Positions 20,350 through 35,847 of a DNA stretch of 64,000 bases are shown one piece after another (within the stretch, counting starts at the first letter, position 1; each line of letters begins with the position of its first letter). The translations under genes were made by a program, and so were the position numbers. The stretch is from a virus (taxonomy: Duplodnaviria; Caudoviricetes). The stretch is taken from the IMG/VR virus record IMGVR_UViG_3300035208_001807, positions 85,408 through 149,407 of that record. One strand, given 5' to 3'. The notes under the pieces were generated by a model. It searched no databases and had not been told where the DNA came from. It saw nothing but the letters and a program-made list of their open reading frames with translations.

Positions 20350-21213
20350 ATGAGCAAAGCAAGACCCAGAACTACCCCTCGGCCGAAACACGACTGGGAG
20401 ACTACAGTAATCTTTCCGGATACACATATCCAGAAGAGGGGCAAGGACCGCCACGATCCAATAGCCATCTCGGTAGCACTACAGATTACTAAAGACTTGA
20501 ATGGTGGCAGAGGACCCGATCGCTGGATTCAACTCGGGGACTTTATGAACTTAGAGAGTGTCTCTCCTCATAATAAGGACCTTAAGAGGGGTGCCATTGT
20601 AGATGCCAAGGGTAATCTACTTGATGGTCGCTTGGAAGAAGACTATCAGGTAGCCGACACATTCCTTGAGGGAGTTATGGATGCTACTCCCAATGCTAAG
20701 GAACGTATCATCCTAGAAGGAAACCATGACTACTGGTTATGGTGGTATCGCAACTTCCAGATACCTGGTCCACTACGCGGCTCACCATGGCTACAGATTC
20801 CCAAGGCCTTGAACTTCAAAGAGAGGAACATCCGCTGGATCCCTTATGGATCACAGAGTTCCTACTATCGGCTAGGGAAGCTGGACATCATTCATGGTGA
20901 CTACATTAACCCCTACCACGCAGCAAAGACGATTTCTGCTAGAGGTAGGAATGTTATCTATGGTCATTGCCATGAGGTCCAAGTCCATTCGATTACTAAT
21001 ATGAATGGTATCTGTAGGGCCTGGGCCATAGGATGTCTCAGAACATTAGAGGCGCCGTTCATGAGGGGCCGTGCCAATAGCTGGTCCCATGCGATTGCAA
21101 TTGTCTTCACTAGGCCTAATGGTAACTTCAACGTATTCATCGTTGATATTATCAATGGCCAGGCGACATGGGAAGGTAAGACATACACCGGGAAACATAT
21201 TCCCGGACTTTAA
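20350..21213 (+). CDS. Calcineurin-like metallophosphoesterase
   Basis: DTH, GD, GNHD, HGD and GHCH motifs. Confidence 0.9.
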   Translation: MSKARPRTTPRPKHDWETTVIFPDTHIQKRGKDRHDPIAISVALQITKDLNGGRGPDRWIQLGDFMNLESVSPHNKDLKRGAIVDAKGNLLDGRLEEDYQVADTFLEGVMDATPNAKERIILEGNHDYWLWWYRNFQIPGPLRGSPWLQIPKALNFKERNIRWIPYGSQSSYYRLGKLDIIHGDYINPYHAAKTISARGRNVIYGHCHEVQVHSITNMNGICRAWAIGCLRTLEAPFMRGRANSWSHAIAIVFTRPNGNFNVFIVDIINGQATWEGKTYTGKHIPGL

Positions 21214-21853
21214 TCCTCAATCGATTCGGTTGAAGCGAAGCAGCTAGCCTTCCTCATAAACAATGAACTACTGAGGAAGGCTTTGTTGTTTGGAAGCCAA
21301 GTGGTGTTCCAAACAAGATCAACTGGTTCAGTTGAATTCTAGAAGTTCTCCTTCCATTGCTAGGTATAGCACTGGAAGGGCTACGTACAGTTGTCTGCAA
21401 GTGCAGGTAACTGTCGGTAGTTAGTAACTGCCACTTGTTTCAAGTGGGTCAGTGTAGTATCACAGACCATTCGTCACCGCTTCCGTTACGCTCCATCATA
21501 AAATGATGTCGCTACACTACAGCGTGACTGCTGGTCTGTGTACATGCAGCCGGCGAGAAGATCTGAAGCGCTAGCCGCGGAGACCAAGCACTGGATCCGT
21601 CGAAGAGCTCTACGATCGCGTCTCGCGACTGCAGTCATCTCCAGTTATATAACATATAACGAGGGGATGAAACGGTCGAGTGTTGAGCTTAGGGTACTAG
21701 GACTAACTGAAACCTATTTGATAACTCACTCGTAAAGTCTGGAGTCCCTCCAGTATGAGTTATAGGGTATGTGGCTAGTTATGTCTACGAACTTCTGAAG
21801 CACTCGGGAATGCTGGGAACAGCACTGCCGAGTACTTCAGTAGCAATTGAGGT
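21214..21853 (+). ncRNA. RT-associated large structured ncRNA candidate (retron/DRT-like)
   Basis: At least 10 hairpins, a predicted pseudoknot and long-range pairings fill the interval between the phosphoesterase stop and the RT start. Confidence 0.75.
21539..21653. other. Dense cluster of restriction-site sequences (natural polylinker) inside the RT-associated ncRNA
   Basis: 11 distinct 6-bp palindromes, plus BsaI, BsmBI, SapI/EarI, Eco57I, BpmI, PflMI and PshAI sites, in ~105 bp. Confidence 0.9.
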
Positions 21854-21859
21854 TCTACA

Positions 21860-22801
21860 TTGGGTTATCATACCTATCACATTCCTAAGTCGCATGGTGG
21901 CTTCCGCACTATCCATGCTCCCGATGAAGAGACAATGAAGAGAAGCAAAGAGCTTCTAGATGTTGTCAACAAGGAGCTTGGCAGGATCCATTGGTGGCCT
22001 GCCTGTGGTTCTCTCATCTACTCGTATGCACCTGGTAAGTCTTGTGAGCAAGTAGCTCATGAGATCACAAACTTTGTTCATGAGTTCGGTGCCTATACTT
22101 TGATCTCTCTGGATATCAAAGACTACTTCGGCTCAATCACCAAGGATCATTTCCTTAGGGCTGTTACAAAGCTTGGAGAACTAGGCTCTCACTTATCTCC
22201 TGATATTTGGGAAGCCGTGTGGGCAGAGGCCTATGTGGGCAAGGACAATAGAGGTATTGCTCAGGGCAATCCCCTCAGTCCCCTCATCTCTAATCTAGTA
22301 GGCTGGGCCTGCATTGATGTCTACTTCACTAATGTTCTCTTTCAAGAGACTGAAGCCACTTGTAGATACTGGCGCTTCTCAGATAACATATATATTGTAG
22401 TAAAGTCTGACGACTCCTTTCGTATGGAGAACCTACTCCATAGCTTGAATATGACTCTTAATCTCTGGGTTGCTCAGGGCTTTGAGTTCAAGACTCAGGT
22501 CACATCCAGTAAAGATTATAGCAAACGTGTTGTACTAGGTATCCGTTTAGGGCTTACGAAGCCTCAGATTAACAACCGTAACTGGATCCGGTCGGTTGTC
22601 TATAGGTATTCAACCCGGAAGGAACAGATGCCTACTGATAGGGACATACGTGAGAAATATGGAACCCTGGATCTAGCAAGACTTGAACAAACAGTAAGAG
22701 GTCTGGTAAACTATGCAGTGTCAGTGGACCCCAAATTCGCAGGCTATGTAACAGATAGGGGTCTAAAGGAACTGCTCCCAGAGAGGATGCGACATGCTTA
22801 A
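21860..22801 (+). CDS. Reverse transcriptase, retron/UG-like, with non-canonical FSDN motif
   Basis: IPKSHGGFRTIHAP, YSYAPGKS, LDIKDYFGSI, QGNPLSPLISN, YWRFSDNI and VVLGI (VTG-like) motifs. TTG start after SD GAGG. Confidence 0.9.
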   Translation: MGYHTYHIPKSHGGFRTIHAPDEETMKRSKELLDVVNKELGRIHWWPACGSLIYSYAPGKSCEQVAHEITNFVHEFGAYTLISLDIKDYFGSITKDHFLRAVTKLGELGSHLSPDIWEAVWAEAYVGKDNRGIAQGNPLSPLISNLVGWACIDVYFTNVLFQETEATCRYWRFSDNIYIVVKSDDSFRMENLLHSLNMTLNLWVAQGFEFKTQVTSSKDYSKRVVLGIRLGLTKPQINNRNWIRSVVYRYSTRKEQMPTDRDIREKYGTLDLARLEQTVRGLVNYAVSVDPKFAGYVTDRGLKELLPERMRHA

Positions 22802-23540
22802 CGATGTAGAGTTGTTTGATGTGAATAACAAGCTCAAGATATCTTTAGACTTCTTGAGAGATGCAGTAGTTTTGTCAGGTAAATTAGAGTCCCATAAAGA
22901 TGGGATCTATAAGATCCGCCTGGGCCGTAATGTTGTGACCCTTGTCGATGCTGACATCGAACAAGTAGACCCTCTTGAGATTGAAGGGGAGTATAAATTC
23001 ACCCTGATGGTGGATTCCAAGAAAGGTTTTGCCCACTGGATGTCAGTATTAAGTGAGCAAAACCCTACGAAGAAAGACCTAGCTAAGTACCTCAACGAAG
23101 AGAAAAGACGTTATGATATACAGGGGTTGTCTTCTGACATCTTTGACTATGTTAGGTCTAGTCTAGAAGACTTCGCCAAGAATTCTAAGGGCTGTAAGCC
23201 CTATGTTCCGATGTCATTTGTAATGTCAGTTGAGGTTCTCTCCAAAGTCTTCGGCAAGAAGCTCACAGCTCTTATGAACTCCTCGCCTGTAATCCAGGTC
23301 TTCATTCTTACTTGGCTTCACGGCTACCTGATGTCTTCCTCAGTCAGAAAGCAAGGAGTCAAACTCCAGACAAGGTTTGAAGAGGCTTCAGAGGAAGAGT
23401 TAAAGCGGAAGGAAACTAACGCTAAAGAAATGATGGCTAAGTTCTCTGATGAGTTGAAGAACATGGGAGATGATAGCCCATTCCCCAAGATGAACCCGGA
23501 GGAAGATGATGACGATGACAAACCCGCCCAGCAAGCCTAA
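22794..23540 (+). CDS. Hypothetical protein overlapping the RT stop (possible partner)
   Basis: 8-nt overlap with the RT; acidic C-terminus. Confidence 0.7.
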   Translation: MLNDVELFDVNNKLKISLDFLRDAVVLSGKLESHKDGIYKIRLGRNVVTLVDADIEQVDPLEIEGEYKFTLMVDSKKGFAHWMSVLSEQNPTKKDLAKYLNEEKRRYDIQGLSSDIFDYVRSSLEDFAKNSKGCKPYVPMSFVMSVEVLSKVFGKKLTALMNSSPVIQVFILTWLHGYLMSSSVRKQGVKLQTRFEEASEEELKRKETNAKEMMAKFSDELKNMGDDSPFPKMNPEEDDDDDKPAQQA

Positions 23541-23994
23541 CCCCAATCAGCGTATCGAGGGTATTGTTACTCCGGAGGCCGTTGAGAAGTATAAGGATCT
23601 CTTTGTACCCGAGAAGGTGGAGCAGCTTTATTATCTTCTAAAGGCTGTAGAGCCTGGTTTTAATACCGAGGTTGTTCGTGCAGTGGCCGACGCCAAGCAG
23701 ATCTTCAGGAAGCGTGGCCTGTCGGGCCAGCAGCTTGATGAAGTTGGCGATGCTCTTGCTACCTTCATGAACCGTGGTTTCTTTTTGCATAGGACAGCTG
23801 TTAGTTTGCATGATGTTAAGAAGCTTAATGAGCTTTATAATGCAGACTATGAAGCCTATGAGAGTGAAGTAATTGACGCGGCTCTCAAGGCCCGTAAGGC
23901 CAAGAAGATTACTGCTTCCAAGGTAGAGTCTATTGAGCCTAAGGCGGCTCCCCGAGATGCTGGTAAGCTGTTCGATGATGGTGACCTAGCTTAA
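23506..23994 (+). CDS. Hypothetical protein
   Basis: 162 aa ORF in the operon. Confidence 0.65.
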   Translation: MMTMTNPPSKPNPNQRIEGIVTPEAVEKYKDLFVPEKVEQLYYLLKAVEPGFNTEVVRAVADAKQIFRKRGLSGQQLDEVGDALATFMNRGFFLHRTAVSLHDVKKLNELYNADYEAYESEVIDAALKARKAKKITASKVESIEPKAAPRDAGKLFDDGDLA

Positions 23995-35773: not shown

Positions 35774-35847
35774 GCTTCCATGGCAGAGCGGCCATGCAGC
35801 CGTCTCTAAAACGGCTTAAGTGGGTTCGACTCCCACTGGAGGCACCA
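35774..35847 (+). tRNA. Amber suppressor tRNA (anticodon CTA)
   Basis: Acceptor GCTTCCA/TGGAGGC, anticodon arm GCCGT-CT-CTA-AA-ACGGC, T arm GTGGG-TTCGACT-CCCAC, ACCA end. Confidence 0.9.

Follow-up and report, generated by a model that had tools for sequence, protein, structure and literature searches.

A phage reverse transcriptase and noncoding RNA that resemble a retron, lie outside the retron definition and most likely make decoy DNA against restriction-modification

What could a phage gain from a reverse transcriptase (RT) placed directly behind a structured stretch that is crowded with restriction sites? The locus lies in a window of 64 kb, by which we mean the whole stretch of DNA that was analysed; it was taken from the linear record, 149 kb long and 68% complete, of a large uncultured phage. 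The genes concerned are the following:

20350-21213, + strand: metallophosphoesterase gene, upstream of the RNA gap, given for context only
21860-22801, + strand: RT gene, 313 amino acids, TTG start, with GAGG at 21849-52
22794-23540, + strand: gene for a 248-aa protein of no assigned function, overlapping the end of the RT gene
23506-23994, + strand: gene for a 162-aa protein of no assigned function, downstream, found in 12 of 12 loci and overlapping its neighbours

The earlier note had described a compact RT straight after about 640 nt of structured, gene-free sequence, and this description holds. The RT reading frame matches RVT_1 in a profile search, the 646-nt gap that separates it from the metallophosphoesterase gene (21214-21859) contains only short chance ORFs, and the gap folds much better than its shuffles (z = -9.3). 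Its RNA has no real match in Rfam, and no sigma70 promoter was found for the ncRNA region. Elsewhere the window encodes, within the replication cluster, a Whirly-domain protein (PF08536, 16049-16558) that is likely a single-stranded DNA-binding protein, and five tRNAs, one of which (35774-35847) has a CUA anticodon and would read amber codons.

The RT has about 19 relatives at 30-42% identity. We compared the window with contigs of ten other distinct loci, giving 11 ncRNAs, and covered 12 loci in the case of the downstream genes. All ten other loci lie in syntenic phage-type gene blocks, in the order class II ribonucleotide reductase, phosphoesterase or exonuclease, gene-free gap, RT, a protein of ~250 aa, a protein of ~150 aa and an AAA ATPase. 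The gap measures 220-790 nt and holds a run of hairpins in every locus. The gene upstream of it varies: in most relatives the place of the metallophosphoesterase is taken by an RNase_H_2 gene or by an exonuclease-like gene of 430 aa. No family member turned up among the cultured phages and species genomes that were searched; scans of viral_contigs returned distant RTs only, and no RT-less relatives through the downstream genes. Two local differences were observed: the class II ribonucleotide reductase of L001 (1-2051) contains an intein with a LAGLIDADG domain that is missing from the window copy, and one subclade (L016:726-1421 and the contig of P0007) has an extra gene between ncRNA and RT, which codes for 231 aa and belongs to no known family.

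The middle of the gap is indeed packed with restriction sites, as had been claimed. The segment 21537-21651 contains 12 palindromic hexamers, the highest number of any 115-nt stretch in the 64 kb (the next holds 8); its dinucleotide shuffles average 2.7, and 0 of 20,000 reach 12. It leads the window again when commercial sites of at least six bases are counted (19 against 13 for the next stretch), and it also supplies the densest 120 nt of the entire 149-kb record, with 17 distinct sites against 11 in the next stretch. The palindromic sites include those of BamHI, PstI, SacI, SacII, NheI, BglII, PvuI, NruI, NaeI, AfeI and BsrGI, and the asymmetric ones those of BsaI, BsmBI, SapI/EarI, Eco57I and BpmI. 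An origin of the cluster in a cloning vector or the laboratory was rejected, the best plasmid match being 27 nt at E 0.7. Only part of the stem drawn around the cluster in the earlier note (21545-58 with 21621-33) stands: it lies at these positions and encloses the sites, but it is broken by a mismatch and a bulge, and in the fold predicted for the cDNA 0 of 17 distinct sites are perfectly paired.

Is the enzyme beside this cluster a retron RT? PADLOC, NCBIfam, PDB sequence and Foldseek comparisons all place retron RTs first, well under the family cut-offs: the score is 81 against a cut-off of 235 for St85, and Drt2 gives 37.8 bits against a cut-off of 390. The structure model is confident (pLDDT 94) and has a fold like that of retron RTs. 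The RT is retron-derived by sequence and fold. In a quick tree, the 17 near-full-length relatives group together on a long stem, with support 100 for the clade. NAXXH and VTG define retron RTs (PMC6868368), and both are absent here. Region X reads QVAHE in the window RT and, for example, TLAED or SLVED in relatives, and region Y reads [VIA]LG[IM]R[LVIF]G across the family, the LG being present also in neighbouring retron-like RTs. The catalytic motifs comprise D85 in motif A, QGNPLSP, and F173-S-D175-N176 in motif C. The earlier note had missed that motif C is F-S-D-N here and not YADD; Y/F-[SCV]-D-N was found in 17 of 17 family members, and the retron tetrad YADD with its two aspartates in none of them.

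Such a motif raises the question of whether the RT is inactive, or halts at an RNA:cDNA hybrid or single-stranded DNA, so that the sites would be displayed as hybrid or the ribonucleoprotein would have another job altogether. The Asp-Asn pair in every family member and the loss of NAXXH and VTG speak for this, and D186N serves as a mutant that disrupts the polymerase site of HIV RT (PMC1976467). Yet D85, QG, R172 and D175 are invariant over a deep divergence of 30-40% identity, the RT is modelled with confidence in a fold like that of retron RTs, and Y-S-D-N occurs also in a second RT clade. This second retron-like clade (L010-L013, L019 and L021; proteins P0027 and P0042) stands apart from the family in the tree; its members sit inside operons, and within 3 kb of them neither a G-UUU-C hairpin nor a segment dense in sites was seen. 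We return below to the form in which the DNA would be displayed, and consider the reading as an inactive or stalled enzyme improbable.

The gap RNA of the window can be divided into elements whose order, hp2 with its UUU loop, hp3, variable core, A, linker, A', stem-loop and A'', is shared by the family:

21214-21420, + strand: 5' run of hairpins, probably the ncRNA leader, from the fold; longer than in relatives
21431-21447, + strand: hp2, a G-UUU-C triloop on a stem of 7 bp, resembling the loop by which the RT recognises the msr of Retron-Eco1
21461-21540, + strand: hp3, a hairpin with a perfect 9-bp base free of G-U pairs, directly 5' of the core; candidate snap-back primer at the cDNA 3' end
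21541-21676, + strand: variable core, the proposed template; it holds 12 palindromic hexamers, all distinct, plus 5 Type IIS/IIG sites that are not palindromes, with the highest density at 21537-21651
21677-21685, + strand: segment A, a2-like, 3' boundary of the core, pairing with A'
21686-21797, + strand: linker domain, enclosed by the A:A' helix and 14-170 nt long in relatives
21798-21837, + strand: A' (a1-like, 21801-21806), stem-loop (21811-21824) and A'' (21828-21837); A' pairs with A or A''

A stem with a UUU loop is the RT-recognition motif of Retron-Eco1 (PMC11754653, PMC6868368). Hairpin hp2 is the only G-UUU-C hairpin with a stem of at least 7 bp on either strand of the 149 kb. Of the 11 family ncRNAs, 10 have a G-UUU-C hairpin, confined to the strand of the RT and with GTTTC invariant; it was seen in 0 of 16 RT loci that are unrelated. 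In seven loci, the window among them, the order is hp2, a few bases, hp3 with a perfect base of 9-16 bp, a core of 39-307 nt and then segment A. On the 3' side of the core, 63 of 63 pairs of the A:A' helix are kept in nine loci (L008, with no clean A', and L027, where A' is doubtful, are omitted from this count), with double-sided changes at 5 of 7 positions and pairing that begins exactly at the core edge, and the A':A'' hairpin covaries as well, 15 of its 18 pairs showing double changes; the loci share ancestry, and while alignment placed hp3, A and A' in six of them, the remainder were placed by eye, a procedure that favours the pairing statistics. Because A' can pair both with A and with A'', the RNA probably switches between the two. 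Two variants of the frame were observed. L029 (2782-3003) has a minimal RNA of 220 nt with hp3, a 68-nt core of 9 distinct sites and a 14-nt linker, and no UUU hairpin. One subclade (L001:3790-4000, L023:2773-3000, L024:2775-3000 and the equivalent parts of L003 and L004) carries a second UUU-type hairpin and ~200 nt of structure after A'', possibly a second or relic unit; this extra structure shows no site enrichment, and L003 and L004 differ there too.

The order of a retron RNA is a1 with the branching G, stem-loops, msd, a2 (PMC7736814). Repeats of the a1/a2 kind at the msr-msd ends were not found in the family: both halves of the A:A' helix lie 3' of the template, and A' is followed by G, A or T depending on the locus, so that a branching G is not conserved there. 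By analogy, the family RNA looks like retron geometry that has been circularly permuted, with the cut between two msr stem-loops, to give recognition loop, template, a2, linker, a1 and stem-loop.

Are the restriction sites a property of the core itself? We delimited the cores by the frame of hp3 and A and not by site density, counted distinct sites, and compared them with dinucleotide shuffles. Together the 11 cores contain 77 distinct palindromic hexamers against 25.3 expected (z 11.3) and 54 non-palindromic commercial 6-bp sites of Type IIS/IIG enzymes against 24.4 (z 6.7). The remainder of the same RNAs, equally folded, holds 54 palindromic sites with 65 expected and 46 non-palindromic sites with 36 expected. 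The core excess persists when the window is left out, when close groups are reduced to one locus each (47 against 15.7 and 34 against 15.6), in the pooled short cores (16 against 8.2 and 15 against 6.7), and against hexamer sets matched in GC and CpG (54 against 17). It is strong in long cores, while L004, L022, L026 and L008, which are short, are not significant singly; five-base asymmetric sites and most degenerate sites of 4-5 bases show no clear enrichment in the cores. The comparison of homologs, which the earlier note had named as a possible refutation, was therefore passed: the related RT loci have site-rich cores, Type IIS and IIG sites included, and the conserved RNA frame puts these cores in the same position.

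Could the palindromes have arisen by chance, or simply because the RNA stems are rich in GC? The cores are GC-richer (GC 0.51-0.69) and partly folded, and the arms of their stems duplicate palindromes. This explanation is nevertheless at odds with the counts, which are of distinct sites against dinucleotide shuffles, with a scaffold that is equally folded and has no palindrome excess, and with the enrichment of asymmetric restriction sites. It is largely refuted by the contrast between core and scaffold, and we regard it as the least probable of all readings considered here.

What appears to persist in the cores is words. The cores are unalignable while their 3' scaffolds align strongly; the same sites recur reordered and flipped, GGATCC, CTGGAG, CTGAAG and GAAGAC each in 6 of 11 cores, and most Type IIS sites are found in both orientations. 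Because sites recur in unalignable cores, the asymmetric ones on both strands, it is the words that are kept and not an ancestral sequence. Between two strains with an identical RT, the 73-nt core has accumulated 6 events against 13 in 5,227 nt elsewhere (p 1.6e-7), and one of the core changes swaps CTGAAG for GGATCC. At the level of sequence, then, selection of core content for restriction-modification (RM) sites is demonstrated. The words GTCATC and CATCTC/GGAGAT were observed in 5-6 of 11 cores (among the window, L004, L022, L023, L024, L027 and L029) and have no 6-base match in the enzyme list; they are candidate motifs of unknown RM systems.

A template within the RNA and a 3' scaffold resemble DRT2 (10.1101/2024.05.08.593200), which would suggest rolling-circle cDNA that encodes a peptide. 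The cores, however, lack a coding signal: stop-free frames number 24 against 22.7 expected, three long cores have no open frame at all, and core lengths are not multiples of three. The RT is also closer to retrons than to Drt2. No shared boundary motif was seen at the core edges. A DRT2-like product is accordingly very improbable. The earlier note had invoked copying of the retron, DRT2 or DRT9 type; the anatomy favours a retron-derived, hairpin-primed double-stranded copy and not a concatemer like that of DRT2.

The phage itself appears to be exposed to RM. Its record is depleted in CTCGAG (2 against 19 expected), CCCGGG (0 against 14), GACGTC (0 against 10) and TTTAAA (3 against 13), while one-base variants of the first three words are common, and palindromes of four G/C bases occur at 0.6 of expectation in the flanks of relatives. 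The purged words likely reflect host pressure of the XhoI, SmaI, AatII and DraI type, and the avoidance as a whole indicates that the clade meets RM. Type IIS sites are not avoided in the genome. That CTCGAG, CCCGGG and GACGTC are missing from the phage's own core lies within chance (p 0.22 in the overall test, and about 0.27 when counted by hand); the EcoRI site is missing there too, while the cores of L016 and L023 do contain CTCGAG. A genomic avoidance complementary to core content, promising at first, was lost after GC matching. Neither a DNA methyltransferase nor RNase H1 was found in the record, 68% complete as it is.

If sites are selected, they might also act where they lie. The cluster could serve in the phage chromosome as a cut-me or recombination hotspot or as a binding array, the RT being incidental; in the genome the sites are true duplex DNA, and the core mutates fast. 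But every site has 21-191 other copies in the record, so the cluster is no unique target, and the core is framed by covarying RNA helices and by a retron recognition loop that is confined to the coding strand of the RT. Such a chromosomal role is thus very unlikely, and the argument turns to DNA made from the RNA.

Duplex DNA is what restriction enzymes recognise. When the cDNA is folded as a single strand, no more than 6 of the 137 distinct sites in the family are predicted to be perfectly paired, and none of these 6 belongs to the 17 of the window, so that a plain retron msDNA would not display the sites and a second strand is needed. Hairpin hp3 folds flush at the predicted cDNA 3' end in 11 of 11 ncRNAs. 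It is nearly devoid of G-U pairs (122:1 against 937:90 elsewhere), and helices free of them make up 8 of 9 hp3 in the family against 12 of 57 other helices (p = 1.6e-4), as would be expected if the hairpin has to form in DNA. RNA:DNA hybrids are recognised by some restriction enzymes, and display of the sites as hybrid would draw on this capacity; the G-U-free hp3, pointing to a role as DNA, and the use of asymmetric sites in both orientations count against it.

We hypothesize that the RT and its ncRNA are a phage-domesticated unit making hairpin-capped double-stranded DNA decoys against host RM, a reading to which the sequence evidence gives slightly better than an even chance. The RT would hold on to hp2 in the way that retron RTs bind their UUU loop. 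By exchanging its partner A'' for A, A' would create a primer-template helix at the 3' edge of the core, and the RT would then copy core and hp3 and halt at hp2. Host RNase H would strip the RNA, upon which the 3' end of the cDNA could fold into a perfect copy of hp3 and prime the second strand, the predicted product being a hairpin-capped duplex of 70-340 bp. Many copies bearing unmethylated sites of common host RM systems would soak up restriction endonucleases during phage DNA replication, and the turnover of sites between strains would follow the RM repertoires of hosts. Since the sites already stand at 21-191 genomic copies, the core would be useful only if amplified. The chief weakness of the decoy model in concept is its timing: the place of the RT gene among replication genes means that the bait would come too late for cutting at first entry; protection would have to concern replicating DNA or later infections of the same cell, or else packaging would be required. 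The fuller proposition, somewhat short of an even chance, is anti-defence by an RT whose active site has been rebuilt, together with a retron RNA in circularly permuted order, yielding self-primed, hairpin-capped double-stranded polylinkers against a programmable panel of Type II, IIS and IIG enzymes, in which GTCATC and CATCTC/GGAGAT would name unknown host RM.

The same DNA could instead be a sensor that, once modified or cut, releases a partner, namely the 162-aa or the 248-aa protein, or it could drain methyltransferases and so leave host DNA restrictable or phage DNA unmodified. Retron msDNA is known to sense DNA-modifying enzymes (10.64898/2026.10.13.758329), and the 162-aa gene follows the RT in all 12 loci with overlaps to its neighbours; a homolog of the 248-aa gene stands directly after the RT in 10 of 12, missing in L027 and L029. 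An unalignable core of 39-307 nt, on the other hand, would hardly offer an effector a fixed place to dock, and the proteins encoded beside the RT carry no effector, toxin or nuclease signature and belong to a conserved phage gene order; the 162-aa gene could be either a partner of the RT unit or merely a syntenic core gene. As RM sites are common to nuclease and methylase, sequence cannot separate the decoy from the methylase reading. We consider the sensor and methylase readings together unlikely, if less so than the other alternatives. Most likely, then, the unit works like a retron while failing retron membership, and its RT-made DNA would be a decoy against RM.

The earlier note knew of no described system with such an architecture, and our literature search agrees within its coverage, which left subscription journals mostly aside: it found retron-like viral RTs, reported without RNA or function, and engineered decoys, and no natural system of this kind. 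What is new, as judged from sequence, is a site-selected template combined with failed retron membership, in machinery that descends from retrons and with a function that we infer. The known means of anti-restriction are protein mimics, inhibitors, base modification and site avoidance. Decoy DNA would, if real, be a different strategy, a multi-target bait at the level of sequence that is quickly reprogrammed and that turns a defence enzyme against defence. The core would then be a readable record of the RM systems that a phage meets, and an aid to host prediction. The family bears, moreover, on whether Asp-Asn in motif C is compatible with RT activity, and on whether a circularly permuted retron RNA can self-prime a second strand, a route to double-stranded decoys or donors made in the cell.

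Among known systems, bacterial retrons (Retron-Eco1/Ec86 of type II-A, Ec78/Ec83 of type I-A, the St85 family; PMC6868368, PMC7736814) are nearest in RT sequence and fold, in the upstream cis ncRNA and in the UUU-loop stem; there too a short inverted-repeat helix abuts the template, which lies just 3' of the recognition loop. Unlike retrons, the family is phage-borne, has Y/F-S-D-N, lacks NAXXH, VTG and a conserved branching G, has a permuted priming helix and no recognisable effector, and carries a hypervariable template full of RM sites. DRT2 (10.1101/2024.05.08.593200) shares an internal template in a large ncRNA, a 3' scaffold and, as proposed for the family, a double-stranded end product; the family differs in its weakly similar RT, the lack of an open frame and of frame-keeping length, an unconserved template sequence and the proposed role in anti-defence. 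Dam methylation triggers Retron-Sen2 (10.64898/2026.10.13.758329), where RT-made DNA, as proposed here, bears the site of a DNA-modifying enzyme; but Retron-Sen2 has one site, the RcaT toxin and a task in bacterial defence, and the phage family 4-26 different sites and no toxin. A survey of retron-like RT clades found RTC3 and RTC5 in viruses and raised interference with host defence as a possibility (PMC13681634); it names no ncRNA or restriction sites (0 occurrences), a contrast that concerns the content of the survey and not cluster membership. Engineered retron decoys bind sequence-specific proteins in cells, so titration by such DNA can work (10.1101/2023.09.27.556556). Those decoys are synthetic hairpin msDNA with a single target, whereas the family is natural, addresses many targets and needs a second strand. 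The protein DNA mimics Ocr and ArdA occupy restriction enzymes and act against Type I systems (and BREX). The proposed outcome here is alike, a decoy, but it would be real, sequence-programmed DNA directed at Type II, IIS and IIG sites, and to these precedents the family would add an Asp-Asn RT, a permuted frame and a putative built-in primer for the second strand.
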